Below are positions 1,767 to 41,091 of a stretch of 44,176 nt of DNA, one piece after another (positions within the stretch are counted from its first letter, which is position 1; every line of letters begins with the position of its first letter). The DNA comes from Clostridia bacterium (GTDB lineage Bacteria > Bacillota > Sulfobacillia > DUSP01): positions 1 to 44,176 of the forward strand of contig DUSP01000057.1 of NCBI GenBank assembly GCA_012842575.1. The letters run 5' to 3'. The notes beneath the pieces are model-generated. The model saw nothing but the letters and a program-made list of their open reading frames with translations. It did not search any database and was not told where the DNA came from. The translations under genes were made by a program, and so were the position numbers.

Positions 1767-1769
1767 AGG

Positions 1770-2744: not shown

Positions 2745-2808
2745 CACACGGACACGGATGAGGGGTGTTTATAGTGCACCCATGTTAAGGCAAGAGAACC
2801 GTGTAAGC

Positions 2809-16929: not shown

Positions 16930-17703
16930 TTATCTCGCCATTACCGACCAAGAACCAAGTCTCAGCCGGTCTGCAACCATCGCTATGAACTCCGAGTTGG
17001 TCGGTTTGCCCTTCTCCTGATTTACCGTGTGCCCAAAGATTTCATTGATGATATCAAGGTTCCCCCTGTTCCACGCGACTTCGATGGCATGCCGTATGGC
17101 CCGTTCCACCCTGCTCGGGGTGGTCTTGTATTTCATCGCTATTAACGGATACAATTCCTTGGTAATGGCACCCAAGAGCTCCACTCTTTCGACGACCATC
17201 ATTATAGCATCGCGCAGATATAGGTAACCTTTTATGTGCGCCGGGATGCCGATTTCGTGAATTGCCCGTGTGACTTCCTGGCTCAGATCTCGATGGCCCT
17301 TCGAGGCGGCTTTTGGGCTGGGATTGATGTTGTCGCTCCCTACCAGTTCGCGAACCCTTTTTCCCAGAATTTCTAAGTCGAAGGGCTTTAAGATATAGTA
17401 ATCCGCTCCTAAACGCGCCGCTTGCTGTGCGACTGTTTCTTGACCGAAGGCACTCAAAACCATGATCTTTGGCCGATGGCTGATACCCGATATTTTTTCC
17501 AAAACTCCGATTCCATCGATTTGAGGCATGATTATATCGAGTATGAGGACGTCCGGATTCAACCGGTTTACCAAGTCGATGGTTTCCGGCCCATTGGACG
17601 CAAACCCCACGGGCTCCATATCGTCCTGAGATGCCAAATATTCTTTTAATATGTCACGAAATTCGCGATTGTCATCGGCAACCAATACTCTAATTTTATC
17701 CAC
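16930..17703 (-). CDS. spo0A: Sporulation master response regulator Spo0A
   Basis: The receiver domain has [12 protein letters not shown]...[14 protein letters not shown]. The C-terminal Spo0A-specific DNA-binding domain has [12 protein letters not shown]...[32 protein letters not shown]. The track start is TTG at 17739. GTG at 17703 is preceded by AAAAAGGAGGAAAGGCCT, a consensus SD at 6-7 nt, and is preferred (257 aa). Confidence 0.95.
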
Positions 17704-17739
17704 AGGCCTTTCCTCCTTTTTGTCATTGGCAGAAAACAA

Positions 17740-17764
17740 ATTCGACGTAAGCCAAATATTCCCT
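17740..17764 (-). promoter_or_regulatory. Candidate sigma-H promoter for spo0A, overlapping a 0A-box-like site
   Basis: The minus strand reads gaAGGGAAT-atttggcttac-GTCGAATtt. The -35 at 17758-17764 has one mismatch to AGGAwww, the spacer is 11 nt, and the -10 GTCGAAT at 17740-17746 fits RnnGAAT. The -10 also contains cGTCGAA, one mismatch from the Spo0A box TGTCGAA. B. subtilis spo0A has a sigma-H promoter flanked by 0A boxes. Confidence 0.35.
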
Positions 17765-17918
17765 TCAAGGAGCTGACAAATTTTTCCTTAGTAAGGAAAT
17801 GACGAGCTATGCATTTTACCCGTCTACGGTGGCCAAATAGGGGATATGGCACCCTGAAAGGGTAAGACGCCTTCTTATTCTGGCTCTTTCCTCATCATTT
17901 AAAGCATCGCTCGGGTTT

Positions 17919-17949
17919 AGAATATAAGACGCCCTTCTACTGGGCGTCT
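17919..17949 (-). terminator. Probable intrinsic terminator after spoIVB
   Basis: The minus strand reads AGACGCCC-agtagaa-GGGCGTCT, a perfect 8-bp stem (17927-17934/17942-17949), followed by the weak U-tract TATATTCT. Confidence 0.5.
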
Positions 17950-17962
17950 GAAACGTGAACCT

Positions 17963-19303
17963 TTAGGCAATTCTTCTTGCATGAAGTCTTTTTCCTTGGC
18001 CGACGATGTCAACTTGGCTATCCCCGTAAGCTTCCCTCAACATCCACTCAGCGAAGACTCCGTATCCCTTTGACGGGTCGTTGACGAATACGTGGGTAAT
18101 AGCGCCCACTAGCGTACCATCCTGAACCACGGGGCTTCCGCTCATGCCCTGTACTATCCCACCCGTTTTGGCTAACAATTCGGGATCCGTTATCTTGATT
18201 ACAATCCCCTTGGAGCCGGGGTCCGATTGCTTCTTAACCTTCAGGATCTCGCATCTGAATCGGCCAATTTTTTGCCCCTCTACCACGGTAAACACTTCGG
18301 CAGGCCCTATTCTCACCTGTTCCGGCAGGGCCACGGAAATGGGCTTTTCGAAGAACGGATTTACGGGCTCTACGTTCAAAGTGCCTATGATACCGAACCT
18401 TGTGTTCCGATCTATACTCCCGATGACGTCGCGCTCGTCCACGAACACCCCGATTTTCTCCCCCGGACGCCCCCGTCGCCCTTGATCGATAGCTGAAACC
18501 GATGCCTTGACTATTCTTCCTTCCCGGATGTCTACGGGCCTTGACGACTCGAGATCCATGACGGTGTGGCCCAGGGCCGCATAACAACCCGTATCCGGAT
18601 CATAAAAGGTCAGAGTTCCCACTCCCGCCATGCCATCTCTAACCCATGCCCCTATCAAATAACGGCCCGTTTTCTTGCATTTCACCGGTTTTACCTTAAG
18701 GTCAAAAGTGGACCCGTCGGGGTGTTTCCCTTCGAGACGGACGTAATTTCCGGACCTTCCTGCCTCCTCAATCAAATACGATAGATGCTCGTCGCTGTTT
18801 ATGCTGACACCGTTACATCGCAAAATCACATCCCCCAGCCGGAGGCCGGCATCACCCGCGGGATCGAACCTCTTTCCACTTTCGCCCTCCACCGGTACGA
18901 CCTTTGATACGGTTACGCCCTTGGATTTCAAGACCAACCCTATTGAATGTCCCCCGGGTATCACTTTGGTTTCCGGGACCACCGCCAGCCGTACCTGTCG
19001 TAATGGAATGAGTCCGAGAAACCTCACATCAAGAGAGGCGACACCTGTATCCTGACCGGTCACCTGGATGCCCTTGTTGCGCCCGAGCGGCTTTACCACT
19101 ATTTCTGGGGAGCGTCTCTCCCCTGGACCCGATCGATCCGGCCCGACGCTCACCCCGAACGGTGGCTTGAAATCCAGCGTATATTTGGCCCCTTCTTTGA
19201 TTCTCAACTCTTCAGGAAGGCTCCAGAGGCTCCTTTGGTAAGGGGAGAGCACGCCAAGAAGGATGAGGCAGAGCAGTACCAAAGAGCTGTATCGACGTAT
19301 CAC
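17963..19303 (-). CDS. spoIVB: SpoIVB peptidase (S55 serine protease with PDZ domain)
   Basis: 446 aa with an N-terminal TM segment. The PDZ region is GDVILRCNGVSINSDEHL. The S55 catalytic region is GTLTFYDPDTGCYAALGH...GIVQGMSGSPVV. It lies between recN and spo0A, as in Bacillus. Confidence 0.92.
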   Translation of the reverse strand: MIRRYSSLVLLCLILLGVLSPYQRSLWSLPEELRIKEGAKYTLDFKPPFGVSVGPDRSGPGERRSPEIVVKPLGRNKGIQVTGQDTGVASLDVRFLGLIPLRQVRLAVVPETKVIPGGHSIGLVLKSKGVTVSKVVPVEGESGKRFDPAGDAGLRLGDVILRCNGVSINSDEHLSYLIEEAGRSGNYVRLEGKHPDGSTFDLKVKPVKCKKTGRYLIGAWVRDGMAGVGTLTFYDPDTGCYAALGHTVMDLESSRPVDIREGRIVKASVSAIDQGRRGRPGEKIGVFVDERDVIGSIDRNTRFGIIGTLNVEPVNPFFEKPISVALPEQVRIGPAEVFTVVEGQKIGRFRCEILKVKKQSDPGSKGIVIKITDPELLAKTGGIVQGMSGSPVVQDGTLVGAITHVFVNDPSKGYGVFAEWMLREAYGDSQVDIVGQGKRLHARRIA

Positions 19304-23902: not shown

Positions 23903-25833
23903 GGTGTCATCTGGGCCGCCTGCAATCCGAAAGGAGACGGTTCCAAGAGTTTCAGGGCCGCCGCTACGATCCCCCGGGCATCAAGTCCCAAATCCCCGAG
24001 GACCTCTTCCCTTTTGCCGTGTTCTATAAACCTATCGGGGAGGCCAAGGCAACGTACCTTTGGAATATCGGCTCCGGCGGACGCACTATCGTGGAGAAAA
24101 CCGAGTATCCGGCTGGCCGCTCCACCGGAGGTGACGTTTTCCTCCACCACCAAAAACGCATCCGTCTTTGTTCTGAGGTCTCGTAGCAACTCCTCGTCGA
24201 GTGGCTTCACGAATCGCCCATTCACCACCGTAGCGTAGATACCGTACCGCTCAAGTTCATCGGCAGCCAAAAGAGCCTCCTGGACCATGGGGCCGTATGC
24301 CCAAATGACGAGATCGGTTCCATCTCTCAATACCACCGCTTTGCCCCAAGGGATTTCCTTAAACGGCACTCCGTGTTCGAATCCTTCCGGGACGCGGGAC
24401 TTAGGATACCTTATCGCCGTTGGGCTTGACCTATGCAAAACTGCGGTATATAGCATGTCACAAAGTTCATAGCCATCCGCGGGCACGGCGATCGACATGT
24501 TCGGAATATGCCCGAGGTAGCTCAAGTCAAAAGCCCCCTGGTGGGTGGGCCCGTCTTCGCCTACTATTCCCGCACGATCCAAGGCGAATACCACCCCTGC
24601 TCCCGGAAGGGCTACGTCATGCACCAACTGATCGTAAGCGCGCTGCAAAAATGTGGAGTATACCGCGAGAACCGGCCGCATTCCGCGTGAAGCCAGTCCG
24701 GCAGCAAAGGTCACAGCGTGCTGTTCGGCTATCCCCACATCGAAGAACCGCTCCGGGAACCTCCTTGAAAACTCCGTAAGCCCAGTTCCCTCTACCATGG
24801 CGGCGGTGATGGCTACTAATCGCGGCTCCATAGATCCGAGCTTTACCATGGCCTCGCCGAATACCTGGCTATACGTCGGGGCATGCCGGCCCGAATGCGA
24901 CTCACCGGTGGCCAAATCAAAAGGGCCGATGCCGTGAAACCTCGAAGGGTCGTTCTCGGCGGGAGGGTACCCTTTGCCCTTCTGCGTGACCACGTGGACA
25001 AGGGTCGGACCCTTCTCGTGCTTTGCGGCTTCGAAGGTGCGCGTCATCGACGAAATGTCATGACCGTTTATGGGGCCGAAGTAACGAAAACCCAGTTCTT
25101 CGAAGAACATTCCCGGAACGACCAGGTACTTCAGGCTATCTTTTAGTCTCTCCACGGTTCTCGAAACGTTCTCTCCCACGAACGGAAGTCTCAAAATCAT
25201 TTGCTCGAGATCGCTTTTCACCTTGTGATACGCCGGATGGGTCCTTATACGGTTCAAGTAGGAGGCAAGTGCGCCTACCCTTTGAGAGATGAACATCCCG
25301 TTATCATTGAGCACGATTATCAGCCTCGAACCCTTTTGTCCCGCATGGTTCATGGCTTCAAAGCTCATGCCCCCCGTAAGGGATCCATCTCCCACTACCG
25401 CCACCACATGATGGTTCTCTTTCTTGAGATCGCGGGCGCACGCCATTCCCAAGGCCGCCGAGATAGCCGTGCTCGCATGCCCCGCTATGAACTGATCGTG
25501 TGGGCTCTCGGACGGGTCCGGATAACCTGAAAGCCCACCCCGTTGCCGTAGGCTCGAAAACCTTTCGAATCTCCCCGTCAGGAGCTTATGTGCGTATACC
25601 TGGTGCCCCACGTCCCAAAGAATTATGTCTTTGGGTGAAGAGAAGCTCAAATGAAGGGAAATGGTCAGTTCCACCACGCCAAGGTTGGATCCCAGATGCC
25701 CTCCGTTTTTTGAAACCGTCTGGGCTATCACATACCGTATTTCTCGAGCCAGGACCTCAAGCTCGCCTGAATCCAGACGCCTTATGTCTTCCGGCCCCTT
25801 TATTTTCGGAAGAATCGACAGCACTTTTTCCAA
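23899..25833 (-). CDS. dxs: 1-deoxy-D-xylulose-5-phosphate synthase
   Basis: 644 aa. Motifs seen: GHLGSNLGVVELT, GHASTAISAALGMA and the ThDP motif GDGSLTGGMSFEAMNHAG...NDN. The real start is probably GTG at 25824, with a GGGAG SD 9 nt upstream, rather than the track TTG at 25833. Confidence 0.95.
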   Translation of the reverse strand: MEKVLSILPKIKGPEDIRRLDSGELEVLAREIRYVIAQTVSKNGGHLGSNLGVVELTISLHLSFSSPKDIILWDVGHQVYAHKLLTGRFERFSSLRQRGGLSGYPDPSESPHDQFIAGHASTAISAALGMACARDLKKENHHVVAVVGDGSLTGGMSFEAMNHAGQKGSRLIIVLNDNGMFISQRVGALASYLNRIRTHPAYHKVKSDLEQMILRLPFVGENVSRTVERLKDSLKYLVVPGMFFEELGFRYFGPINGHDISSMTRTFEAAKHEKGPTLVHVVTQKGKGYPPAENDPSRFHGIGPFDLATGESHSGRHAPTYSQVFGEAMVKLGSMEPRLVAITAAMVEGTGLTEFSRRFPERFFDVGIAEQHAVTFAAGLASRGMRPVLAVYSTFLQRAYDQLVHDVALPGAGVVFALDRAGIVGEDGPTHQGAFDLSYLGHIPNMSIAVPADGYELCDMLYTAVLHRSSPTAIRYPKSRVPEGFEHGVPFKEIPWGKAVVLRDGTDLVIWAYGPMVQEALLAADELERYGIYATVVNGRFVKPLDEELLRDLRTKTDAFLVVEENVTSGGAASRILGFLHDSASAGADIPKVRCLGLPDRFIEHGKREEVLGDLGLDARGIVAAALKLLEPSPFGLQAAQMTP

Positions 25834-25887
25834 CTCCCATTTATAGTTCTTCTCGATAAGTCCCCTTCGTTTTTATGGGTCTCCTTT

Positions 25888-25923
25888 ATAACTCTTCTGT
25901 AACTATATAACTCTTCTGTAACT
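25888..25923. repeat. 17-bp perfect direct repeat with 19-bp period (ataactcttctgtaact-at-ataactcttctgtaact) upstream of dxs
   Basis: Read directly: 25888-25904 equals 25907-25923. Confidence 0.95.
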
Positions 25924-25970
25924 CGCCTTTGTTTCTCGGAGGATCGCCCCTTGAACAGCTGTTGAAGCGC

Positions 25971-26594
25971 TCAGTTTCTCCGGGTCCTTCGCTGTCTTGG
26001 AGACCCTTTGGGACCAATGATACTAAACCCCGTATACTTTTCAATCCAGTTCAAAAAGATCCCGACGCGCCTCACTATCTCCTCCGCATCGTTGATACCG
26101 ATGCCCTTCGCGGCCGCCTTACCGCCTACTGTCAAACCCGCCACCACACCGACCATCACGACGCTCACCACGGCCTCGTTCAAGTCCGGTCGTAGCCGTT
26201 CGATCTGGAATACGATGGCGGCACCGAGGGCACCGCTTACGGTTCCGCATATATCTCCCACGATGTCATTGCAAAAACTGGTGACCTTCTCTGAGTACCT
26301 GACGAGTCTCAACCCTTCCCTGGCGCCCCTCACCTTCTTCGCCGCCATTGCATGAAGCGGCGCCTCGTCCGCAACGGCTGTAGCGATACCGATTACGTCA
26401 AAAAAAATACCGGCCCCGATGATCAAGGCCAGTAAAAACAGAGAAAGGCTCAAACTGAAAGTCCTCGTAATGTGCTCTGAGGGAAACGCCAGACCGACGG
26501 CCACCACAAAAGTGACGAGGCCGGTCGCAAGACCCCGGCGTAACGAAGCACTCGTCCGGAGCCTTCTCGGTTTCGGAGGCTCCAAGTACTTCAC
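25971..26594 (-). CDS. oapA: OLE-associated protein A (OapA)-like small polytopic membrane protein
   Basis: About 200 aa with a basic N-terminus followed by four hydrophobic segments (LVTFVVAVGLAF, LSLFLLALIIGAGIFFDVIGIA, ICGTVSGALGAAIVF, VVSVVMVGVVAGLTV). It lies immediately downstream of the structured RNA and upstream of dxs, the canonical oapA position. The assignment rests on context and architecture, not on an alignment. TTG at 26585, with a GAGGTG SD 6 nt upstream, is the likelier start. Confidence 0.68.
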   Translation of the reverse strand: MKYLEPPKPRRLRTSASLRRGLATGLVTFVVAVGLAFPSEHITRTFSLSLSLFLLALIIGAGIFFDVIGIATAVADEAPLHAMAAKKVRGAREGLRLVRYSEKVTSFCNDIVGDICGTVSGALGAAIVFQIERLRPDLNEAVVSVVMVGVVAGLTVGGKAAAKGIGINDAEEIVRRVGIFLNWIEKYTGFSIIGPKGSPRQRRTRRN

Positions 26595-26614
26595 CTCTTT
26601 TGTCTTAGTCGTTC

Positions 26615-27377
26615 CACGATAGGCGTGCCATGAGAATATAAGTTTTCGGGTAGGTGGCAGACACCGAGTAAACGTTGCGGCTTGAGGTCTAGCAGGCTTT
26701 CCCGAACGATCACCGATCCGTCGCCGGCTCGGCGGTTTCCCTTTACGACCGTTCTTGCGTCGTCGCCGATGGCAAGGCTAGATTGCCACTTAGGTCGCAC
26801 TGTAATCCCCGGTGCCACTCAGCATCGAGCCGAACAGCCTAGGAGCTTTCCTCAACGGTTTCTCTACTCCCTAGCCTCTTTTGCAGAAATGATTTCAAGC
26901 GGCCTCATGTAAAACCGACAGACCGCTATCCCTCATCCCCACTCAAGGCAGGCTACGCTGCACCCAGTGCATTGACACCGGATGCAGGTGTTCCCTAAAC
27001 CGCAGAAGCCGACCGGCCCCACGGGTTTAGGCCTCAGCGGAACCGGGGTCAACGCCTACATGCCTTTGTAGATCGCCCCGAATTCCTTCACTCCCTGCAT
27101 CAGCCCCCGGATGGGCTCCAGCAGCCAACACAAGAAGCTTCATCGATATGCCATTGACGGATTTTTAGGCCCGTCTTTAGGAGCAGTGACGCCGACTAGG
27201 ATACTGCGCCACCCACCCTTTCAATTTTGGACCGTCGATAACGGCCCCAAACCGTTCATTCCGGTTTTTAAGGGCTCTTTCCCCATACAGGTCTTGATTG
27301 CATTCTTGACCACATTACATAACATTAGATTTTACATTAGATTCTACATGAAGCTTTCCTGCATGGGCCCTCCGCGT
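26615..27377 (-). ncRNA. ole: OLE (ornate, large, extremophilic) RNA; boundaries approximate (+/- 50 nt)
   Basis: This roughly 0.8 kb stretch has no credible ORF and is flanked by ispA (upstream) and oapA-dxs (downstream). Helices are densely packed, for example 27024-27031/26994-27001 and 27252-27256/27240-27244. The bulged helix 26867-26874/26839-26845 is another. Helix 26983-26987/26958-26962 encloses a 6-bp helix (26976-26981/26964-26969) whose only non-canonical pair is G-U on the minus strand but A-C on the plus strand. A near-consensus promoter lies at its 5' side. The context matches the published nusB-folD-xseAB-ispA-ole-oapA-dxs-tlyA-nadK-argR-recN arrangement. No covariance-model search was run. 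Confidence 0.75.
27322..27345. repeat. 12-bp tandem duplication (acattagatt[tt/ct] x2) in the 5' leader of the OLE transcript
   Basis: Read directly: 27322-27333 versus 27334-27345, with 1 mismatch. Partial copies acatta and acatg flank it. Confidence 0.95.
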
Positions 27378-27383
27378 TTACGC

Positions 27384-27412
27384 ATTATAACACCTGCCGC
27401 CCTCTATTTCAA
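27384..27412 (-). promoter_or_regulatory. Near-consensus sigma-A promoter with extended -10, directed into the OLE RNA
   Basis: The minus strand reads TTGAAA-tagagggcggcaggTGt-TATAAT. The -35 is at 27407-27412, the spacer is 17 bp with a TGn extended -10, and the -10 is at 27384-27389. The ispA stop codon TAG (27404-27406) sits immediately after the -35 hexamer. Confidence 0.6.
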
Positions 27413-28426
27413 ATACGCTCCCGCACGGTCAGTGCCGCAAGACACTGAGGGCCACTCGTCTCGTCCCTTTATACGCTGGACTCTTTCCAAGACTCTCGTT
27501 GGCAGGCTGGCGAGAAACCAGGCGCGCTCCCCAAGCGACCTGGCGATGCGCACACAATGCCCGACTTCCGACTTCAAATCCTCCGCGGCGACGGAAAACC
27601 CGAGGCTCCTCACGTAATTGGGCCGCGAGTCCTCTGCCCCAAAGCCGTAATCGGAAATATCATCGGCGATTTGGTACGCCAATCCGAAATGATAACCGTA
27701 CTGCCTCAAGGAATCACATACGTCGTCTTCCGCCCCTGCTGCAAGCCCCCCGAGGACGACTGACGCCTCGAAGAGTTTCGAAGTCTTTAGGGCATAAGTG
27801 CGACGCAGGAAAGCCCTTCGGCGTTCCATGGTCTTAAGGTGAAGGTCCGGGGAGAATGAGCGGCTCGTAACGGCTATGTCCATCCCCTGTCCGCCGAGCA
27901 TTCCTCCAAACCCGGCGCTTCTTGTCACTTCCGCGATGATGGAGTGCATGCGCGAGGCGAAATCGTGCGACAGGGTTGATATGGCTTCGAAGGCTAAAGT
28001 CAGGAGAAGGTCACCCGTCAAGACCGCGACCGCTTCTCCGAAAGCCCTGTGTAACGCAGGCCGGCCTCTGCGAAAATCGTCGTCGTCCATGCACGGGAGG
28101 TCGTCGTGTATGAGGGAATACGAGTGAATGAGTTCGATGGAACACGCAAGAGGTAAGGCCGCCTCGGCAAAACCGCCGGCCACCTCGCAAGCTTCTTGAA
28201 GCAAAACCGGTCTTAACCTCTGACCTCCGGGAAAAACCGCATATCGGACGGCGTCTCCAAGTGCAGGTATTCGATCGTCACCGGCTTCGGATAACCTTTG
28301 ATGCAAAAACACTTCGAGCGCTCGGTCGACGCGTCGCCGGTGCTCGTCATAGCGCGTAAGGAACCTACGCTCTTCATCTGACCTGACGTCTCCGCAATCA
28401 CCCAACGTTCCCGTCCCGTCCTTCAA
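27404..28426 (-). CDS. ispA: Farnesyl/geranylgeranyl diphosphate synthase (trans-isoprenyl diphosphate synthase)
   Basis: 340 aa. The first Asp-rich motif is LIHDDLPCMDDDDFRRGRP and the second is GLAYQIADDISD. The track start is TTG directly after the xseB stop, and the N-terminus may be shorter. Confidence 0.92.
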   Translation of the reverse strand: MKDGTGTLGDCGDVRSDEERRFLTRYDEHRRRVDRALEVFLHQRLSEAGDDRIPALGDAVRYAVFPGGQRLRPVLLQEACEVAGGFAEAALPLACSIELIHSYSLIHDDLPCMDDDDFRRGRPALHRAFGEAVAVLTGDLLLTLAFEAISTLSHDFASRMHSIIAEVTRSAGFGGMLGGQGMDIAVTSRSFSPDLHLKTMERRRAFLRRTYALKTSKLFEASVVLGGLAAGAEDDVCDSLRQYGYHFGLAYQIADDISDYGFGAEDSRPNYVRSLGFSVAAEDLKSEVGHCVRIARSLGERAWFLASLPTRVLERVQRIKGRDEWPSVSCGTDRAGAYLK

Positions 28427-30874: not shown

Positions 30875-32263
30875 TCACATCGACATCAAGTACTCGTGAA
30901 TGGCGGCCGCCGCTTTCTTCCCGGCCCCCATCGCGAGTATTACCGTGGCCGCTCCGGTCACGGCGTCACCTCCGGCGTACACCCCCCGACGAGAAGTAAG
31001 TCCGGTCGCCTCATCGGCGATGATGCCTCCCCAGGGCTGGGTGCGCAAACCCGGCGTAGTCTTGGACACGATAGGATTGGGACTTGTCCCGAGAGCCATG
31101 ACAACGGTATCCACATCGAGGACGAACTCCGAACCCTTAATCGGCACGGGCCGCCTTCTTCCGGATTCGTCGGGTTCTCCCAGTTCCATTTTGAGACATT
31201 CAAGCCCCTTGACCCAGCCTTTCTCGTCGCCCAACACCCTGACGGGATTGGTCAGGAGATAAAACTTAACCCCTTCTTCTTTGGCGTTTTCGAGCTCTTC
31301 GAGTCTTGCGGGCATCTCGGCCTCTGATCGACGGTATACTATCATCGCCTCCTCGGCCCCCAGGCGCAGTGCGCATCGCACCGCATCCATCGCCACGTTA
31401 CCCCCGCCGACAACCGCCACCCTCTTTCCGCACTTGATGGGCGTATCGTACTCGGGAAAGAGGTATGCCTTCATGAGGTTCGTCCGCGTGAGCCACTCAT
31501 TGGCCGAATAGACCCCGCAAAGGTTCTCCCCCGGGATCGACATGAATTTCGGCAATCCCGCGCCTGTCCCGAGAAACACCGCCTGATATCCCATACCGAA
31601 AAGGTCGTCGACGGTGAGAGTCCGACCGATGATCACGCTAGTCTGTATCTCGACGCCCAGGGATTTCACGTAGTCGACTTCACGAGTCACTATGGCTTTG
31701 GGCAACCTGAACTCCGGTATGCCGTATATGAGCACACCACCGGGGGCGTGCAGCGCTTCGAAGATCGTCACTTGGTGGCCTAGGCGGGCGAGGTCGCCCG
31801 CACACGTCAGGCCGGCCGGGCCGGAACCCACTACCGCCACCTTTTTACCCGTAGGAGGGGCGCACTCGGGTTTATCGATACCCGTGGCCGCCTCGAAATC
31901 CGCTACGAAACGCTCGAGCCTCCCTATAGCCACCGGTTCGCCTTTCTTCCCCAGTACGCACAGTTGCTCGCACTGCGTCTCCTGCGGGCAGACCCTACCG
32001 CAGATGGCGGGAAGGCTGTTGGTTTCCTTCACTTTCTTCGCGGCGCCCCTGTAATCGCCTTCTTTTACGAGCTTGATGAACTCGGGTATTTGTACGTTTA
32101 CCGGGCAACCCTTGATGCAAGACGGCTTCTTGCATTGAATGCACCGCGAGGCCTCCGTACGCGCCATTTCTTCGGTGTAGCCGAGGGCCACTTCGTTGAA
32201 ATTCCGTATTCTCTCCTTGGGATCTTGCCGCGGCATTTCTACTCTTTTCGTTTTTGCGGTCAT
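30875..32263 (-). CDS. nfnB: NADPH-dependent glutamate-synthase-small-chain homologue (NfnB/SudA type; 2x[4Fe-4S] + FAD)
   Basis: The Cys clusters are CIQCKKPSCIKGCPV and CGRVCPQETQCEQLC. The dinucleotide folds are VAVVGSGPAGL and VAVVGGGNVAMD. I place the start at ATG 32263, which forms an ATGA overlap with the upstream stop. The track start at 32290 lies inside the upstream gene. Confidence 0.85.
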   Translation of the reverse strand: MTAKTKRVEMPRQDPKERIRNFNEVALGYTEEMARTEASRCIQCKKPSCIKGCPVNVQIPEFIKLVKEGDYRGAAKKVKETNSLPAICGRVCPQETQCEQLCVLGKKGEPVAIGRLERFVADFEAATGIDKPECAPPTGKKVAVVGSGPAGLTCAGDLARLGHQVTIFEALHAPGGVLIYGIPEFRLPKAIVTREVDYVKSLGVEIQTSVIIGRTLTVDDLFGMGYQAVFLGTGAGLPKFMSIPGENLCGVYSANEWLTRTNLMKAYLFPEYDTPIKCGKRVAVVGGGNVAMDAVRCALRLGAEEAMIVYRRSEAEMPARLEELENAKEEGVKFYLLTNPVRVLGDEKGWVKGLECLKMELGEPDESGRRRPVPIKGSEFVLDVDTVVMALGTSPNPIVSKTTPGLRTQPWGGIIADEATGLTSRRGVYAGGDAVTGAATVILAMGAGKKAAAAIHEYLMSM

Positions 32264-33099
32264 CGACAACCACCCCCGTGCGCGCACCAAGCCTCAAGCG
32301 CGGTTCGTTCTTGATCGAGATACATCCTGCATCGGCGTATAGCTTCGTCGAAATCCACTTGGTGACCGTCGAACATGGGCCCATCCACGCAAGAAAACTT
32401 CGTTTCTTTGCCGACCGTGACGCGACAGGCGCCGCACATTCCGGTTCCGTCCACCATAATGGGGTTCAGGCTCACCCAAGTCTTTACGCCATAAGGGCGC
32501 GTCGTTTCTACGCAGGCCTTCATCATCAGCATGGGTCCCACCGCTATGATCTCGTCGAAGTGCTGGCCCTCGTCCAGGAGCTTCTTTATCAGCCCGTTGG
32601 CGAACCCGTGAAATCCACGGGACCCGTCATCCGTGGCTATGTAAAGCTCCGACGATACGGCCCTCATTTCCTCTTCCAGGATAATGAGTTCTTTGGTCCT
32701 CGCGGCTATGATGGAGATGACCTCAACGCCATTTCGGTGCATCGCCTTTGCCTTCGGATATATGGGCGCCACACCTACACCGCCGCCTACACATAAAACC
32801 CTGCCCGAGGTAGGGAGCTCGGCAGGTACCCCCAATGGCCCCACTATGTCAAGAAGGCGGTCTCCCTCCTCGAGGAGCCCAAGGGCTTTCGTGGTCTTCC
32901 CCACCTCTTGAAACACCATGGTTAAAGTCCCCTGGTCGGCATCGTAATCGGCTATGGTAAGGGGGATTCTCTCACCGTTTTCAGAGATCCTCACGATTAC
33001 GAACTGCCCGGGTTGGGCTTTTGCTGCAACCAGCGGTGCGTTGACTACATACAGCTTCGTCGATGGTGCCAATGTTCGCTTTTTCACAATCTCGTTCAC
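32260..33099 (-). CDS. nfnA: Ferredoxin-NADP+ reductase-like subunit (NfnA/SudB type; FAD/NAD-binding + C-terminal [2Fe-2S])
   Basis: 279 aa. Motifs seen: GQFVIVRISENGERIPLTIADYD, CVGGGVGVAPIYP, and the C-terminal Cys cluster MCGACRV...CVDGP. It is paired and translationally coupled with the gltD-like subunit. Confidence 0.85.
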   Translation of the reverse strand: MNEIVKKRTLAPSTKLYVVNAPLVAAKAQPGQFVIVRISENGERIPLTIADYDADQGTLTMVFQEVGKTTKALGLLEEGDRLLDIVGPLGVPAELPTSGRVLCVGGGVGVAPIYPKAKAMHRNGVEVISIIAARTKELIILEEEMRAVSSELYIATDDGSRGFHGFANGLIKKLLDEGQHFDEIIAVGPMLMMKACVETTRPYGVKTWVSLNPIMVDGTGMCGACRVTVGKETKFSCVDGPMFDGHQVDFDEAIRRCRMYLDQERTALEAWCAHGGGCR

Positions 33100-35207: not shown

Positions 35208-35882
35208 TCACCCCTCGGGTTTGGGAACCACCGAAATGCCTTCGGGGCCAAGACCGAGAGTCCGCATCACGACGTCGGCGATCCTGGCAACGTCGCCCTT
35301 CTCGAGCGCACCGGCCTTGACGAAGACCACCGCCCCGTCTTTTGTCGGTGATACGAATGCGTCCTCGTAGCCCAACTGCCTGACAAGGTCTTCGGCCATT
35401 TTCGCTCCGGTCCATTCTCGACCCAGTTTCATCAGTCTGGTAAGCGCTTCGCTTTTTACCGTTTGATCGGCGTCCGGGTCTTCGGCGATGGATTTGAGCA
35501 TCTCGCTCTCTCTGCTATACGTCCTTTCGCGTTCCATTCGCGACTCCTCGAAAAAGCCGTCTTGAGTCTCCTTACCGGTTCCCTCCGCGAACACACCATC
35601 GCCCTCGTCTTCGAGTGCGCCCGACATCTTTACGGACGCGCCGGCACCGGTCCGGGATGTCCCCTGTGCCTCCTCCGATACCCCGTTTTGTGTCTTTGAG
35701 TCTCCTTCTACTATCAGACGCTCACCTGAGGCCGGTACGGAAGCCTCCATATCTTCCCCCATTATGCTCCTTTTCTCGAAGGCTTCTCGCCTTGCACCCA
35801 CATAAAAGGCCAGGGCCGCTACCACTACCACTAGAATCATGAATCTCAACACGGTACTCTTTCTGACAGTGACGCTCAGCAT
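35208..35882 (-). CDS. spoIIIAH: Stage III sporulation protein AH
   Basis: 224 aa with an N-terminal TM segment and an acidic linker. The C-terminal YscJ/FliF-like domain is RMERERTYSRESEMLKSI...LVRQLGYEDAFVSPTKDGAVVFVKA...VARIADVVMRTLGL, comparable with B. subtilis SpoIIIAH (...QGYEDALV...). Confidence 0.85.
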   Translation of the reverse strand: MLSVTVRKSTVLRFMILVVVVAALAFYVGARREAFEKRSIMGEDMEASVPASGERLIVEGDSKTQNGVSEEAQGTSRTGAGASVKMSGALEDEGDGVFAEGTGKETQDGFFEESRMERERTYSRESEMLKSIAEDPDADQTVKSEALTRLMKLGREWTGAKMAEDLVRQLGYEDAFVSPTKDGAVVFVKAGALEKGDVARIADVVMRTLGLGPEGISVVPKPEG

Positions 35883-35885
35883 TTG

Positions 35886-36512
35886 TCAGCCTCCTTTCCT
35901 CGGTAACACGATGACCTTATGCGCCGGTATGTCAAGGAGGGTACGGACCGCTTCTCCCAACATGCTTTTTGTACGCGGATCCGCCGCACCATCCGCCACC
36001 ACCATGACTCCGGCTATCTCAGGCCTTGATTCCTTCACGGCCATAGGTGTATTACCCCCAAAACCCGCCGGTTGGCCCGCCATGACCACTCGTACGTCCT
36101 CGGTGTTTTCCGTAATGCGCCTCGTCCCGCCCCTCTCGTCCCTCTCATCGGTACTCCTCTGGGAGCGCGTCCGGTCCTCGGCCAGCTCCTTTTGCGGCCC
36201 TGCTTTCAACGACACGCGGACCAAGACTCTCCCTGCACCATCAATCTCGGAAAGGATGGCCTCAAGGTCATTCTCCATGAGCCTTTCATAGGTCCTAAGC
36301 GCGTAGGAGTCGGCCCCCGGCGAAGAGAGGACGCCTCCTTCCTTCTCCGACCGGCTCGACAAGGTCCCGCTCCCGGCCGAGTCATATCCGGGGTTTTCCT
36401 CCGTCCTAGAACGGTCCATAAGACCCCCTATCAGGATGAGTGCTATGCCTAATAACGCCAGTGCGATTATCTTGAAATCGAGTTTGAACCCGAATTTACT
36501 CAACCTCCACAC
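35886..36512 (-). CDS. spoIIIAG: Stage III sporulation protein AG
   Basis: The C-terminus EIAGVMVVADGAADPRTKSMLGEAVRTLLDIPAHKVIVLPRK matches the SpoIIIAG ring-forming domain. One N-terminal TM segment is present. The track ORF extends to 36608 through a 9-bp repeat region. I prefer GTG at 36512, with a GGAGG SD 8 nt upstream. Confidence 0.85.
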   Translation of the reverse strand: MWRLSKFGFKLDFKIIALALLGIALILIGGLMDRSRTEENPGYDSAGSGTLSSRSEKEGGVLSSPGADSYALRTYERLMENDLEAILSEIDGAGRVLVRVSLKAGPQKELAEDRTRSQRSTDERDERGGTRRITENTEDVRVVMAGQPAGFGGNTPMAVKESRPEIAGVMVVADGAADPRTKSMLGEAVRTLLDIPAHKVIVLPRKGG

Positions 36513-36623
36513 CGATTTCACCTCCAACACTACGTACACTGCATACACTGCGTACACGACCCATACGACGTGCGCGACGTACGCGCCACACAACCCCGGT
36601 GAACGCACCCGGGTCGTATTCGC

Positions 36624-37373
36624 CTAGCCATTCGCCCCTACATCCCCCATCCGGATCTCGACGTTTTCGGGCGAGACGCCCACTGCCTCCCCTATAACAG
36701 TCAGGATGGTCTGTCGGAGACTTTCGTCCTCCGCCTTACCCTTTTCCCCATCGCGACTGTGTGCATCACCGATACGTTCCCCCCGGGCATCGGGCAGCGC
36801 CGTTTTGCCCTCTACCCCTTCGATCGGCGCGTCCTCATCCTTTGCGACGATGGGCGGTACCCGAACTTCGATCCGGCTTTGGCTACCGTCGGTCTTTGAC
36901 GTGGCATCCGTGTGATCCGTCCTGCCCTCTGGGCCGCCTTCACCCGCGGCCCCTGTGCCGATGGGAACCGTCACGAAAACCCTATCCACTTTCCAACGAC
37001 CGGTCCGGTCGTCCCTGGCCACGCTCACCTTCACAGAGGCTTCGCCGAGACCCTGGATGCTCGAAAGGCGAATCTTCAGTCCCTCCTCTACCACACGGGA
37101 TATCAGTTCCGTACTCTGTTTTTCATATTCGCCCGCCTGCACCCTCCAGCCGTAGTCTTCAAGTGGCCCGCCGAGGGGAGCGGCGGGCAAAGGCAGTAGT
37201 AACCGGCCTCCCGCAAGGCGTACCACAGGGTCGATTATGGCAATTACGACGAATACGCCTAGCACCAACTTGGCGTATTTCTTCATATCACCTTCCGGCA
37301 TGAGCATTTCCGCCACTACGGAGAAGAACAGCACCGCGCTAATGGTTCGTACCCAGTCTTTCGCCCAATCCAT
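36624..37373 (-). CDS. spoIIIAF: Stage III sporulation protein AF
   Basis: From ATG at 37373 the sequence is MDWAKDWVRTISAVLFFSVVAEMLMPEGDMKKYAKLVLGVFVVIAIIDPVVRL. This parallels B. subtilis SpoIIIAF (MSFLTEWLTTIVLFILFAIVIDMLLPSSSMQKYAKMV...). The track start at 37535 overlaps spoIIIAE. A longer, Gly/Glu-rich C-terminal region is present. Confidence 0.8.
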   Translation of the reverse strand: MDWAKDWVRTISAVLFFSVVAEMLMPEGDMKKYAKLVLGVFVVIAIIDPVVRLAGGRLLLPLPAAPLGGPLEDYGWRVQAGEYEKQSTELISRVVEEGLKIRLSSIQGLGEASVKVSVARDDRTGRWKVDRVFVTVPIGTGAAGEGGPEGRTDHTDATSKTDGSQSRIEVRVPPIVAKDEDAPIEGVEGKTALPDARGERIGDAHSRDGEKGKAEDESLRQTILTVIGEAVGVSPENVEIRMGDVGANG

Positions 37374-37420
37374 GAGGTCCACCCTCTGCTCCACTCCCTT
37401 CGGCCTGCAACCAATGGGCC

Positions 37421-38740
37421 CTAGAAAGGACGAGCGAGTCCTACCAAGGCGGTTACGGATAGGAATGCCATGATGGAAACGGTGAGCACCGCCGCCCAGA
37501 GCGTCATGATGGAGCTCGCCAGGGCGTGAAGGCAATCGCTCATCCTGTTCGAACCGATGGGTTGAGTTAGGACTCCTGCCAGCCTATATATGGCAGCCAA
37601 AGACAGTATCTTCAACAATGGCACGACCACTATGGCTACAATGGCTATCATGCCGGCGATCCCCACAGCGTTCTTTAAGAGCAAAGAGGAACTGAACACG
37701 AGTTCTGTGGCATCCGACACCATCTTGCCCACCACGGGAATGAGGGAATTGCTGAGAAACTTGGCCGATCTCAGTGCCATGTTGTCGCTGACCTCGCCCG
37801 CCGCCCTTGAAACCGCCACGACGCCGAGGAACACGGAAAGGCCAATGCCCAGGACGAGCATGGCGGCCTGACGTATGAACCCGGATACATGATTCAGACG
37901 GAACGTGTCGCTCATCGCCCCGACAATGTCGAGGGAAGCCGCCAGCAAGAGGGCTGGCAGCACGTACGTAGAAACCACGTAGGCTACGCCGCTTATGGTC
38001 ATCACCATGGTGGGTTGGAGTATGCCCGCCGAGACCGGCGCCCCCGAACCCGCAAGCAGCGTCGTCATGGTGGGGAGGAGGGCAAGTATCGCTTGGTTTA
38101 AATTCCTTACCGCCTCCGCGGCAACTCCGGAAGCTATCCTGAAACTTCCCATGACCAACACCGCCAGTGCCAGAAAACACGCGCCTTCGGCGACTTTTGT
38201 GACCGCGTCCGAACCGAATGCGCTGCCAATTGGAGTGACCAAGGCCATGACGAGGCAAAAAAGGATCAGCTTACCCAGGAGCACGAGGTTTGACCTCACT
38301 TCCGCCAGGAAGTATCCCATGAGGTACCTAGAAAGGCCCCTGATGTCCAGAACCGGCTCTCCGCGGGAGACCCTCTCGACCGTCTCCTTGACGCTACCTG
38401 GCGCCCAATCTAAAAGGCCTCGGACCTTGGGATCGGACATGACCCTATCTATTTCAGGCAACGAAATGGATTGGAGGCTTTGTTCCATGATGTCTTTCAC
38501 TGTCGTCGCCGAGTACGGCGAGGGTTCCGGAGGGAGAATGGAGGCGTCCTCGCCCTCGGAATGAGGGATGGGTTTACCCTCGGCGCAAGCGATGCCCGTT
38601 CTATAACCCACGATTCCAAAGGCAAGAGTTGCCGAAGCGACCATCATTATGAGTACGGCAAGCACGATCGCCGTTTTCGTCTTCATCCTCGGTGGTTTCA
38701 CCATCGTAAGCACTTCCCGCCCTTTATGGACAACGGCCAC
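37421..38740 (-). CDS. spoIIIAE: Stage III sporulation protein AE (polytopic membrane protein)
   Basis: 439 aa with a signal/TM N-terminus and then about 7-8 TM segments. It occupies the expected position in the spoIIIA operon, and its size and topology are typical of SpoIIIAE. Confidence 0.88.
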   Translation of the reverse strand: MAVVHKGREVLTMVKPPRMKTKTAIVLAVLIMMVASATLAFGIVGYRTGIACAEGKPIPHSEGEDASILPPEPSPYSATTVKDIMEQSLQSISLPEIDRVMSDPKVRGLLDWAPGSVKETVERVSRGEPVLDIRGLSRYLMGYFLAEVRSNLVLLGKLILFCLVMALVTPIGSAFGSDAVTKVAEGACFLALAVLVMGSFRIASGVAAEAVRNLNQAILALLPTMTTLLAGSGAPVSAGILQPTMVMTISGVAYVVSTYVLPALLLAASLDIVGAMSDTFRLNHVSGFIRQAAMLVLGIGLSVFLGVVAVSRAAGEVSDNMALRSAKFLSNSLIPVVGKMVSDATELVFSSSLLLKNAVGIAGMIAIVAIVVVPLLKILSLAAIYRLAGVLTQPIGSNRMSDCLHALASSIMTLWAAVLTVSIMAFLSVTALVGLARPF

Positions 38741-38743
38741 AAT

Positions 38744-39130
38744 CTACCCAAGAAGCCCCGAAAGAGTCTCCAAAACCGCATAAAAGACCGGCACCGCCGC
38801 GACAAGGATTAGGATTTTGCCCGCCAACTCGACCTTTGAAGCCACCGTCTCTTCGCGGGCATCCTTGCATACGTGAGCGCAAAACTCTGTGAGATAGGCT
38901 ATGGCCACGATTCTCAGGATGGTCGATACGTACGCCAAGTCGAGGTTGGAGCGTTGTCCCAGATTCTGAAAGAACCTTACGACGCCCACAACGGGACCGG
39001 CCAAGTTGATGAGAATGAGGCCGCCCACCAGTATGGAGAGCACCGTTGCCACTTCGGGGCGCTCCCGGCGAATGACCACGAGGAGCACTACGGCCATCAA
39101 CGCAAAACCCGTGATTTGAATGAAGCTCAT
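38744..39130 (-). CDS. spoIIIAD: Stage III sporulation protein AD
   Basis: 128 aa with 4 TM segments. The sequence ILRIVAIAYLTEFCAHVCKDAREETVASKVELAGKILIL is characteristic of SpoIIIAD. Confidence 0.9.
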   Translation of the reverse strand: MSFIQITGFALMAVVLLVVIRRERPEVATVLSILVGGLILINLAGPVVGVVRFFQNLGQRSNLDLAYVSTILRIVAIAYLTEFCAHVCKDAREETVASKVELAGKILILVAAVPVFYAVLETLSGLLG

Positions 39131-39156
39131 GGCGAGGACCTCGCTTTGACGCTGAC

Positions 39157-39354
39157 CTAATAAAGTTGAAACATCGCCCGGACGGTGTCGAAGAGATCCC
39201 TTATGACCCCGAGTACCATGCCGAGGACCACCACCACGCCCACGAGGGTGATTATGTAACCGTGCTCTTCCTTCCCCGCCTGCTTCATGACCATGTTTAG
39301 TACGGATATGATGATGCCTATACCGGCGATTTTAAAGACCAAATCGAGATTCAT
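39157..39354 (-). CDS. spoIIIAC: Stage III sporulation protein AC
   Basis: 65 aa with 2 TM segments. The sequence MNLDLVFKIAGIGIIISVLNMVMKQAGKEEHGYIITLVGVVVVL is characteristic of SpoIIIAC. Confidence 0.9.
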   Translation of the reverse strand: MNLDLVFKIAGIGIIISVLNMVMKQAGKEEHGYIITLVGVVVVLGMVLGVIRDLFDTVRAMFQLY

Positions 39355-39365
39355 GGCTCTACCCC

Positions 39366-39887
39366 CTAAATTATGGCCAAAGCCAACGCCAACCCCCCGA
39401 AAAGCCCCAGGATCCTGTACAGGCGAGCGTTTTTCTCCACTTCAAGGGCTACCTTCTCCTCGATAACCTTCAGACGTTCTTCGGCCAGCCTTACATGCCG
39501 AACCTGATCCTTGACATCAGAGACCCCTATGCTGAAGGAAAGAGCTGACAATACCTCAAACTCGGGTTTTCCTATTGGAGACCTTCTTTCCGCCTCTCTC
39601 AGAGCGGCGGTAAAGGCCTCCGGGCCGGTAGTCCGCGTGTCCCCCCTTAGGGCCGAAGCGGCGGTCTCAAAGAAGGTGGCCGCTCCTCCGTCAACAGCCG
39701 CAGAAACCCGTTTTAACGCCATATCGAGCGGGGTGGCACCGAAAGCGATTTCCGTTTCCAAGACCTCCAGCCCCGACCTAAGCCCTCTTACCATCTGGAG
39801 CCTCCGTTCTAAATCGACGGAGGCCAGATGACCCATATAAGCGGTGGATCCGACCAGGATCAGGCCGCCTGTGATCTTCAGCCACAC
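39366..39887 (-). CDS. spoIIIAB: Stage III sporulation protein AB
   Basis: From GTG at 39887 the sequence is VWLKITGGLILVGSTAYMGHLASVDLERRLQMVRGLRSGLEVLETEIAFGATPL...KPEFEVLSALSFSIGVSD...EKNARLYRILGLFGGLALALAII (173 aa). This is collinear with B. subtilis SpoIIIAB. An AGGGGAGGG SD lies upstream. The 77 extra N-terminal codons in the track ORF (to 40118) are Arg/Gly/Pro-rich and overlap spoIIIAA. Confidence 0.85.
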   Translation of the reverse strand: MWLKITGGLILVGSTAYMGHLASVDLERRLQMVRGLRSGLEVLETEIAFGATPLDMALKRVSAAVDGGAATFFETAASALRGDTRTTGPEAFTAALREAERRSPIGKPEFEVLSALSFSIGVSDVKDQVRHVRLAEERLKVIEEKVALEVEKNARLYRILGLFGGLALALAII

Positions 39888-41091
39888 CGTCCCAGCCCTC
39901 CCCTTTACCCCGACCTTCTCTTGACGCCGGCGCCAGAATCGGCAACTCGACGGACGTCGGCCCCACTCGGATCCGGCGGCTATCGGCGAAATCCCCCTCA
40001 GTACAGGGGGTCGGCGGCCGAGCGGACGTAGACCCCAGTTCCACCCGGCGGACGGGCCACGACACCGCCGCGCCTCGTCCCTCTTTCGAATCCCGTTCGT
40101 GGCGTAGCGTGATGTCATATACGCCCTCCACCGTCCCGGGACCGCGCCTGCGGGACAGTACGACCGCTCGTTCGAACCAGCCGTCTTCTATGAGGCCGAA
40201 AAGAACCGGCCTTTTAGACAGGTCGTATAAGTCATGGGCATGGACCGTGGCCAGCACGGTCACGCCCGCGTGGAGAGCGTCCTGAAGCGCTCGGACATCC
40301 GCCGGTTTTCCCACTTCATCTGTGGCTATCACCTCAGGTGACATGGAACGGATTGCCATGATGATGCCAATCGCTTTGGGGCAGCCATCCATCACATCCG
40401 TTCTCATCCCTACGTCCTTTTGAGGAACGCCTTGAAAACATGCTGCGATTTCAGAGCGCTCATCTATTAGGGCAACTCGCTTGCCGGCCAGCCCGATTTG
40501 ACTCAAGCCATCGGAAACCACTCTGACCACGTCCCTCAAGAGCGTGGTCTTGCCACACCCGGGTGGCGACACGATGAGCGTGTTACAGAGCCCTAAGGAA
40601 GGCTCGCCGTCGTTTTGGTACGCCACCGAAACCTTCCGAAGAATCTGCGGTAAAATTTCTTCCCCCGGACCTTTTACTTCCCGCGACAGTCTTACGTTGA
40701 TGCCTGACACCCACTTTATGGTACGCACCCTTCCGCCTTCGAGCACCGCTTTTCCGGTGAATCCGACCCGGTGTCCCCCTCTCAACGTCACGAAGCCTTC
40801 GCTTATTTCTTCTTGCCATGCGTATACCGACGAGCCCAGGAGCAGTTGAAAGGTTTTGGCCATATCTTCCTGTGTGACTACGTATACCCCTCTGGGATCC
40901 CTCATCGGGCGGCCGTCGGGAGCCAAAAAGACGTCGCCGACGGCAAGCCCAAGGGCCAGAGGTCTTCCGACACGAAGCCTTACCTCCTCCACGTTCCTCA
41001 CGTCAACGATGCCCGGGCGCATTGCGCCTTGCAGTGCTTTGCGAATACCATCTGAGAAATACGGTAAGATCTCTTCGATTGCCGAGTACAC
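39778..41091 (-). CDS. spoIIIAA: Stage III sporulation protein AA (AAA-type secretion ATPase); 3' boundary questionable
   Basis: The start is GTG with a GGGGGGA SD. The Walker A is IVSPPGCGKTTLLRD and the Walker B is VIATDEVG. The family-typical end is ...FERAVVLSRRRGPGTVEGVYD, near 40100. The ORF then continues about 100 low-complexity codons to 39778 and would overlap spoIIIAB by about 110 nt. Confidence 0.88.
   Translation of the reverse strand: MYSAIEEILPYFSDGIRKALQGAMRPGIVDVRNVEEVRLRVGRPLALGLAVGDVFLAPDGRPMRDPRGVYVVTQEDMAKTFQLLLGSSVYAWQEEISEGFVTLRGGHRVGFTGKAVLEGGRVRTIKWVSGINVRLSREVKGPGEEILPQILRKVSVAYQNDGEPSLGLCNTLIVSPPGCGKTTLLRDVVRVVSDGLSQIGLAGKRVALIDERSEIAACFQGVPQKDVGMRTDVMDGCPKAIGIIMAIRSMSPEVIATDEVGKPADVRALQDALHAGVTVLATVHAHDLYDLSKRPVLFGLIEDGWFERAVVLSRRRGPGTVEGVYDITLRHERDSKEGRGAAVSWPVRRVELGSTSARPPTPCTEGDFADSRRIRVGPTSVELPILAPASREGRGKGEGWDGVAEDHRRPDPGRIHRLYGSSGLRRFRTEAPDGKRA

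Follow-up and report, generated by a model that had tools for sequence, protein, structure and literature searches.

Genomic Context and Extent of the Locus

The 44,176-nucleotide (nt) stretch analyzed here (hereafter, the window) is an entire contig, DUSP01000057.1, of a metagenome-assembled genome (MAG) of an uncultured "Clostridia bacterium", and its minus strand carries a gene for the OLE RNA (ole) followed by oapA, with ispA upstream and dxs downstream. It is almost certainly the standard ole-oapA locus of an uncultured, spore-forming bacterium of the Bacillota (Clostridia). Between the stop codon of the ispA-like gene (27404) and the next credible start codon (26585), 818 nt are free of genes, which is the longest such stretch in the window; in our own gene map, the runner-up intergenic gap measures approximately 392 nt. 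An earlier note on this DNA had described a gap of about 0.8 kb without a real open reading frame (ORF) and had placed every other gap below 460 bp, and both statements hold. Three ORFs can be drawn there mechanically, at 26591..26818 (minus strand), 26682..26912 (plus strand) and 27111..27617 (plus strand), and none of them has a Pfam match even at E ≤ 1. The principal components of the locus are as follows:

27404..28426, minus strand: ispA-like polyprenyl synthase gene, flanking ole upstream
26638..27228, minus strand: OLE RNA gene (Rfam RF01071), 475 bits, E = 1.9e-136, model positions 1-616 of 616
26586..26637, minus strand: OLE-oapA spacer, with the Shine-Dalgarno sequence GAGGTG (26597-26592) 6 nt before a TTG start codon
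25971..26585, minus strand: oapA, 204 amino acids (aa), TTG start; GX507_03105, a "hypothetical protein" in the NCBI annotation

The earlier note had identified the segment as an OLE locus, had proposed a covariance-model search as a check, and had held that the RNA does not form a new class. The search returned the full-length, minus-strand match listed above, and the RNA is a further canonical copy of the known OLE class. The span that had been given (25971..27412) was too wide for the RNA, since OLE itself occupies only 26638..27228, with a structured core at 26648..27218.

Identity and Conservation of the OLE RNA

When the whole window was compared with Rfam 15, OLE was the sole match above the gathering threshold (curated cutoff, 50 bits), and a permissive scan of positions 25800-27500 (E ≤ 1), leader and spacer included, returned nothing but OLE. 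For comparison, OLE was sought in 40 loci of other genomes, each with a gene for a homologue of the downstream protein, and a full-length copy was present in 39 of them, with scores of 387-558 bits; the score of the window is ordinary because it falls mid-range among these. Two closer metagenomic relatives, L082 and L081, were retrieved through their OapA proteins (70% and 86% identical, respectively); L082 was left out of the column-conservation statistics and was compared with the window through a separate alignment, and the OLE of L081 is partial, being cut by the end of its contig.

Canonical pairs (Watson-Crick or G-U) are found at 140 of the 147 Rfam consensus pairs that were mapped onto the window. 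Likewise, the window is identical at 208 of the 215 columns that are at least 90% conserved in the 39 other OLEs, and one of the seven differing columns is half of a compensated pair. The RNA is 56% G+C, and its structured core (27218..26648) comprises 571 nt closed by the 11-bp stem P1, which is close to the 577 nt of the Clostridium acetobutylicum OLE used for cryo-electron microscopy (cryo-EM) (PMC12286853). More than 2,800 representatives of the class are known (PMC11332333).

The older Rfam structure omits the long-range stems, and these were recovered by RNAalifold on an alignment of 41 OLEs. Stems P1, P2, P3, and P3.1 each display many double compensatory changes across these 41 OLEs, and all four form in the window. 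The parts of the RNA, in 5' to 3' order as far as their pairing permits, are:

27218-27208 with 26658-26648, minus strand: P1, 11 bp, covarying across the 41 OLEs
27207-27204 and 27200-27196 with 26842-26834, minus strand: P2, covarying
27194-27192 with 26858-26856, minus strand: P3, covarying
27185-27179 with 26871-26865, minus strand: P3.1, with 20 double changes at column pair 46/479
27179..27207, minus strand: the 5' strands of P2, P3 and P3.1 together, covarying in the family
27156..27175, minus strand: P4 hairpin GACGGG-CCUAAAAA-UCCGUC with a conserved A-rich loop, from the covariance-model alignment
27091..27153, minus strand: J4a/5 (UGGCAUAUCGAUGAAG, an AUCGAU palindrome plus a kink-turn [k-turn] strand) and P5/P5.1, loop GCCCA
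27032..27086, minus strand: P6/P6.1 (loop AAAGGCAU) and J6/7 (CCGCUGAGG), from the OLE alignment
27031-26994, minus strand: P7, 38 nt, a consensus stem
26987-26958, minus strand: P8, 30 nt, a consensus stem
26874..26949, minus strand: P9, its distal arm truncated, from an alignment of 42 OLEs
26659..26833, minus strand: 3' domain, the P10-P15 region, from the covariance-model alignment
26775-26755, minus strand: P13, with a GCGA tetraloop and a one-nucleotide bulge, the features of an OapB site
26733-26712, minus strand: second GCGA hairpin, within the 3' domain

Several of these parts correspond to elements with assigned roles in published structures. P3 and P3.1 together make up the proposed membrane-spanning helix of the published model (PMC12265935), and the A-rich P4 loop makes an A-A bridge in the dimers resolved by cryo-EM (PMC12286853, PMC12265935). 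The loops that make dimer contacts are conserved in the window, namely the A-rich L4, L5.1 (GCCCA), and L6.1 (GGCA), and palindromes are present at AUCGAU (27147-27142) and at CCUAGG/CUAG in P2, where the pair 27200/26838 is C-G by compensatory change from the usual U-A. In published work, a k-turn and the OapC site lie beside P5 (PMC9723947, PMC12286853), and J6/7 is the second k-turn strand of the cryo-EM model, forming the turn together with J4a/5 (PMC12286853). The published criteria for an OapB site are a GNRA tetraloop together with a bulge of one nucleotide in P13 (PMC7936274). Taken as a whole, the window shares with the full-length OLEs of Halalkalibacterium halodurans, C. acetobutylicum, and C. 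botulinum the full-length model match, all major stems P1-P15, the conserved joining regions, loops L4, L5.1, and L6.1, the GNRA loop and bulge of P13, a location flanked by ispA and oapA-dxs, a host from the Bacillota, and a proximal promoter-like site.

The earlier note had described a chain of short helices, and all of its helix coordinates are correct in the sequence, with differing fates once the consensus structure is consulted. The helix GGTTTAGG/CCTAAACC (27024-27031/26994-27001) is the base of consensus stem P7, and CTGCA/TGCAG, with its inner 6-bp helix that has a G-U pair on the minus strand only, is P8 (26958-26987). The arms of CTCCCTAG/CTAGGAG (26867-26874/26839-26845) are complementary, yet they form no consensus pairing; this helix is rejected because both CUAGG-containing elements pair with the 5' end of the RNA (P3.1 and P2) in the 41 OLEs. 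GGCAA/TTGCC corresponds to no consensus pair either, TTGCC being the 5' strand of P13. Finally, the AACGG/CCGTT hairpin (27252-27256/27240-27244) is located outside OLE, upstream in the non-conserved leader.

The Downstream Protein, OapA

The mechanical ORF of the downstream gene spans 25971..26594, and its GTG codon at 26594 falls inside the Shine-Dalgarno sequence GAGGTG. The TTG at 26585 was taken as the start codon because the window, L081, and L082 all retain the motif AAAGAGGTGAAGTnnTTG; the spacer motif AAAGAGGTGAAGTnnTTGGAGCC is likewise common to these three loci. The resulting protein has four hydrophobic segments (about 18-36, 45-67, 105-126, and 135-153, from 19-mers) and clusters of lysine and arginine at its N-terminus (6 of 22 residues), in the loop 75-100 (7 of 26) and at its C-terminus (10 of 45). 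It carries a DxxxD motif, FCNDIVGDICGT, in which D107 and D111 are invariant among 15 aligned homologues; the motif sits in an invariant FCNDxxGDxxGTxSG block, and all invariant residues of the family are retained. According to Fernando and Breaker, DxxxD sets OapA apart, and CNNM domains lack it (PMC11332333).

In Pfam, the protein scores 22.8 bits against CNNM (PF01595), under the cutoff of 28.4, and has no CBS or CorC (CorC_HlyC) domains. It is thus CNNM-like and, because of the score below the cutoff, not a PF01595 member as Pfam defines that family. A near-miss CNNM score without CBS or CorC domains is the behavior published for OapA (PMC11332333). An AlphaFold2 model of the protein is helical (pLDDT 72.5), and its best matches among PDB folds are archaeal CorB (7m1t/7m1u) and the CorC transmembrane domain (7cfg/7cff); 7M1U is also the top match of the H. 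halodurans OapA (PMC11332333). The search recovered 1,377 homologues of the protein, which shares 35-47% identity with the OapA proteins of the 40 sampled genomes. A full-length, same-strand OLE lies upstream of the homologue in 39 of the 40 loci and is immediately adjacent in 38.

Motif, hydrophobic segments, fold, Pfam behavior, and linkage to OLE together establish, at the level of sequence, that the downstream gene is oapA, in agreement with the earlier suggestion of a roughly 200-aa protein with four hydrophobic segments. Like known OapA proteins, the product is about 200 aa long, has four transmembrane helices, the DxxxD motif, basic cytoplasmic clusters and a CNNM-like fold, and is encoded directly 3' of ole. 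The CNNM-family Mg2+ transporters MpfA, CorB, and CorC have a similar transmembrane fold, as reflected in the weak PF01595 match, and OapA differs from them in lacking the CBS pair and CorC_HlyC and in possessing a fourth transmembrane helix and DxxxD (PMC11332333). Binding of OapA to OLE RNA, and localization of the RNA to the membrane by OapA, have been shown only for H. halodurans (work cited in PMC12265935). Among the annotated ORFs of the window, there is no L7Ae-type or KOW-type small protein.

As a separate observation, the one locus of the 40 in which a homologue occurs without OLE is L013 (DIRN01000097.1, Firmicutes bacterium UBA5435). It is a 6.5-kb locus whose OapA homologue is 41% identical to that of the window, and no OLE was found within 3 kb on either side at Rfam E ≤ 0.01. 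This oapA may be an orphan or a second copy.

Selection on the RNA within the Lineage

Comparison with the two metagenomic relatives provides a view of the RNA over shorter evolutionary distances. The OLE core is 85% identical to that of L082, versus 46% for the leader in a forced alignment, and the partial OLE of L081 is approximately 94% identical (393 of 418 positions). The window and L082 differ at 36 base pairs; 30 of these remain canonical, and in 11 of the 30 both partners have changed in compensation. Insertions and deletions relative to the relatives are not multiples of three (e.g., 4, 7, and 10 nt). Judged by this comparison, the compensated changes in the core mark a functional structured RNA rather than a coding stretch or a relic. 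What is established for this locus is which RNA it encodes and how that RNA is built, that the downstream gene is oapA, the order of the surrounding genes, and selection acting on the RNA structure within the lineage.

Leader and Expression Signals

Upstream of the RNA, the following features were recognized:

27412..27384, minus strand: sigma-A-type promoter-like site TTGAAA-17 nt-TG-n-TATAAT, 11/12 matches, with an extended -10
27219..27383, minus strand: non-conserved leader, 46% identical to that of L082, in which it is about 100 nt shorter
27343-27334 and 27331-27322, minus strand: AT-rich direct repeat AATCTAATGT, followed by TATGTAATGTG, in the region 27311-27343

The promoter-like site overlaps the stop codon of ispA and has a predicted start near 27377. 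Two promoter-like sites were found versus 0.7 expected from shuffled sequences, and a site with identical hexamers and spacing lies between the ispA stop codon and OLE of L082, though the sequence around it cannot be aligned. The predicted start lies approximately 159 nt from P1 in the window versus approximately 43 nt in L082. For B. halodurans, OLE has been shown to depend mainly on its own proximal promoter (an effect of more than 100-fold), with 5' ends near P1 (PMC3413148).

A scan for intrinsic terminators found none between OLE and oapA or between oapA and dxs, and ole and oapA are therefore most likely co-transcribed. A terminator-like hairpin with a T8 run at 26434..26408 (minus strand), inside oapA, was rated a chance match; it is probably no terminator because the T-run encodes the conserved residues GIFFD. 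The second promoter-like site, TTGAAA-16 nt-TATCAT (10/12 matches; 26017-26044, minus strand), lies in the 3' end of oapA, upstream of dxs. The AACGG/CCGTT hairpin occupies 27256-27240 of the leader. The AATCTAATGT repeat is absent from the leader of L082; it may serve as a binding site for a regulator or be mere filler.

Lineage-Specific Features

One departure from other full-length OLEs concerns P9. The anchors of this arm are 57 nt apart in the window versus 72-93 nt in 36 of 42 OLEs, and in the covariance-model alignment the window has 8 nt at P9 versus 30 in the model. The distal arm is missing in six of the 42 OLEs, namely the window, L081, L082, L006, L029, and L042; the truncation is common to the first three, and the last three represent separate loss. 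Where the arm is long, its terminal loop is palindromic in 29 of 36 predicted folds, mostly with GGCC, and some loops read GGGCCC, GAGCUC, or UAGCUA, such that the sequence varies and the palindrome is kept. This variation lends independent comparative support to a self-kissing dimer contact. In the published structures of the OLE dimer, self-kissing of the palindromic P9 loop closes the "P9 arch" (PMC12265935, PMC12286853), an arch that stands apart from the compact core and whose function is not known (PMC12265935).

The window also departs from the 39 OLEs outside the lineage at 27111 and 27036, two positions at which all of those have G. The first belongs to the closing pair of L5.1, which is A-U (27117/27111) versus a near-universal C-G, a double compensatory change that is found in L082 as well. 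The second concerns the k-turn strands: J4a/5 (CGAUGAAG) is conserved, and J6/7 keeps its invariant GAG and has U in place of the preceding invariant G (27036).

Relative to the full-length OLEs, the differences are thus the lost distal P9 arm, the G-to-U change at 27036, the A-U closing pair of L5.1, and a promoter-like site some 159 nt away from P1. Shortening of P9 is also a trait of variant 1 (TANB77-type) OLEs, in which P7-P9 are shortened, and variant 2 (RF39-type) OLEs lack P7 and P8 (Fernando and Breaker 2024, PMC11332333). Unlike both variants, the RNA described here has P7 (38 nt) and P8 (30 nt) of ordinary length and keeps the OapB-site features of P13, and its host is a spore-former with the ordinary operon context, as compared with the reduced-genome gut symbionts that harbor variants 1 and 2. 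The sole particularities of the locus are the lineage-specific loss of the P9 kissing-loop arm and the unusual substitution beside the k-turn.

Weighing the Alternatives

A number of points weigh against treating the locus as a wholly standard ole-oapA unit. The distal P9 arm with its GGCC-type palindromic terminal loop is absent, and one of the four dimer contacts of the Clostridium OLE therefore cannot form here; position 27036 of J6/7 holds U, as it does in L081 and L082, in place of an otherwise invariant G. Because of these two changes, not every published contact can be assumed for this RNA. Similarly, the approximately 159 nt between predicted start and P1, set against the 5' ends of B. 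halodurans, means that processing or a closer start must be assumed, and promoter, RNA ends, and co-transcription with oapA are predictions here. On the protein side, the fold matches (probability 0.87-0.99, TM-score up to 0.62) have weak E-values of 0.3-1.4, a PDB sequence search with OapA gave only chance-level matches to small membrane proteins, and NCBIfam has no OapA model. With respect to P9, the kissing loop is not required for membership in the class because it is absent in five other sampled OLEs and in the published variant 1.

These points can be read in other ways. If the 0.8-kb segment were protein-coding, its helices would be incidental, and the three ORFs (75, 76, and 168 codons) do exist mechanically; this is next to inconceivable, because no ORF matches Pfam, the segment fits a 616-position RNA covariance model at E = 1.9e-136, and changes in the helices relative to the relatives are compensatory, and the reading is effectively refuted on these grounds. 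The lengths of the insertions and deletions and the absence of Shine-Dalgarno sequences from the three ORFs, as the earlier note had observed, point the same way. The segment might instead be a decaying OLE relic, nonfunctional and kept only as the 5' leader of oapA-dxs. Loss of the distal P9 arm would fit such decay, as would the 7 differing columns among the 215 highly conserved ones, including the G at 27036, a count in the upper part of the range among the sampled OLEs. Decay nonetheless appears very improbable: 140 of the 147 consensus pairs are intact, the helices are maintained by compensatory change, which indicates that selection is still acting, and the adjacent oapA keeps every invariant residue of its family. 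Moreover, the P9 truncation and the G-to-U change are common to two relatives with cores 85% and approximately 94% identical, and short P9 arms occur in several independent lineages and in natural variants (PMC11332333).

A further possibility is that the RNA is a true OLE of a functionally distinct sub-type, acting as a monomer or as a dimer held by P4 and P5.1/P6.1 only, with the OapC k-turn perhaps modified. The window, L081, and L082 have no palindromic L9.3 kissing loop; the arm is present in 36 of 42 OLEs, mostly (29 of 36 predicted folds) with a palindrome in its terminal loop, and the invariant G that has become U at 27036 lies in a strand of the k-turn, J6/7 (PMC12286853). The other three dimer contacts (L4, L5.1 GCCCA, and L6.1 GGCA) are nevertheless conserved, the published variant 1 already has shortened P7-P9 (PMC11332333), and the P9 arch is set apart from the compact core (PMC12265935), so that a separate sub-type seems unlikely. 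It is similarly unlikely that the window, L081, and L082 carry a naturally trimmed OLE, with all but the P9 arch loop and the G beside the k-turn kept under selection, that has an altered oligomeric state or an altered dependence on OapC; if they did, they would offer a natural minimal construct, from which one could read the dimer contacts and protein sites that the OLE ribonucleoprotein can function without. The preferred reading is that of a standard ole-oapA locus with a lineage-specific P9.

A Model for the Locus

The following model takes transcription start, processing, dimerization, protein binding, membrane localization, and physiology by analogy from other species (PMC12265935, PMC11332333, PMC10898510, PMC7936274, PMC9723947). 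An OLE RNA of approximately 570 nt would be transcribed from the minus strand, probably from a sigma-A-type promoter of its own where ispA ends, with read-through from the nusB...ispA operon as a possible second source. In its predicted fold, P3-P9 would constitute a compact, dimer-forming domain 1, and P1, P2, and P10-P15 would make up domain 2. By analogy with H. halodurans and the Clostridium cryo-EM structures, the RNA would dimerize and be held at or in the membrane by a dimer of the four-helix, CNNM-like OapA, and it would recruit OapB to the GNRA hairpin of P13 and OapC to the k-turn that adjoins P5. The complex so formed may help cells withstand alcohol and cold as well as excess Mg2+ and growth on poor carbon sources, with control of divalent-cation flux by way of OapA as the most plausible means.

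Neighboring Genes, Host, and Other OLE Loci

According to Pfam and the gene map, the immediate order is ispA-ole-oapA-dxs, and the wider order on the minus strand reads efp, a zinc-ribbon gene, spoIIIAA-AH, two asp23-family genes, nusB, genes for NfnA-like and NfnB/GltD-like proteins, folD, xseA, xseB, ispA, ole, oapA, dxs, tlyA, nadK, argR, recN, spoIVB, and spo0A. Beyond spo0A, the window contains spoIIM, ald, xerD, dacF, and spoIIAA-spoIIAB-sigF. The canonical operon order, which the earlier note had called exact, is therefore present in its folD-xseA-xseB-ispA and dxs-tlyA-nadK-argR-recN flanks and is interrupted by two genes between nusB and folD. This interval (30875..33099, minus strand) encodes a 279-aa product with a DHODB-type Fe-S domain and a 471-aa product with Fer4_20 and pyridine-nucleotide-disulphide oxidoreductase domains (GltD/NfnB-like), and the gene pair looks like an NfnAB-type transhydrogenase beside folD. 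Nfn-type pairs are typical of anaerobes, and the pair suggests that the host is anaerobic.

Genes for sporulation are dense in the window (spoIIAA-spoIIAB-sigF, spoIIM, spo0A, spoIVB, and spoIIIAA-AH):

993-2604, 8195-8851, 16930-19303 and 35208-41091, minus strand: sporulation genes

Such density agrees with a published correlation of OLE with genes for sporulation. Spo0A proteins of named organisms (Heliobacterium, Zhaonella, Syntrophomonadaceae, and others) share no more than 60-65% identity with that of the window, and only three metagenomic sequences are closer. The host thus appears to be an uncultured spore-former that branches deeply within the Bacillota. The Clostridia MAG, the sporulation genes, and the NfnAB-like pair make the earlier proposal of an anaerobic or extremophilic host a reasonable one.

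The sampled loci include several unusual cases. In L049, from a bin labelled Bacteroidaceae, a 419-aa ORF (1463-2722) lies between OLE and oapA (locus 653-3543), and its OLE, at 387 bits, diverges more than any other in the set. Loci with ole and oapA also occur in bins labelled Desulfovibrionaceae (L029) and Actinomycetota (L044 and L052), and the labels of these four bins fit the published remark that non-Bacillota cases are probably due to mis-binning or gene transfer. In L024, from an Anaerosolibacter MAG, the first 100 nt or so of the OLE (2210-2310) align with no other OLE, and P1-P4 are missing or replaced; Rfam still reports this RNA as model positions 1-616, at 404 bits.

Significance

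OLE is among the largest bacterial non-coding RNAs without an established biochemical function, and it has recently been proposed to span the membrane. A further canonical copy adds little by itself. For annotation, an "empty" 0.8-kb region becomes ole and the "hypothetical protein" GX507_03105 becomes oapA, and the OLE class is extended to a poorly sampled, deep-branching, spore-forming lineage of Clostridia. The locus also adds to the indications that natural OLEs can do without the P9 arch and its kissing loop, a point of use in designing minimal constructs for structural and genetic work.

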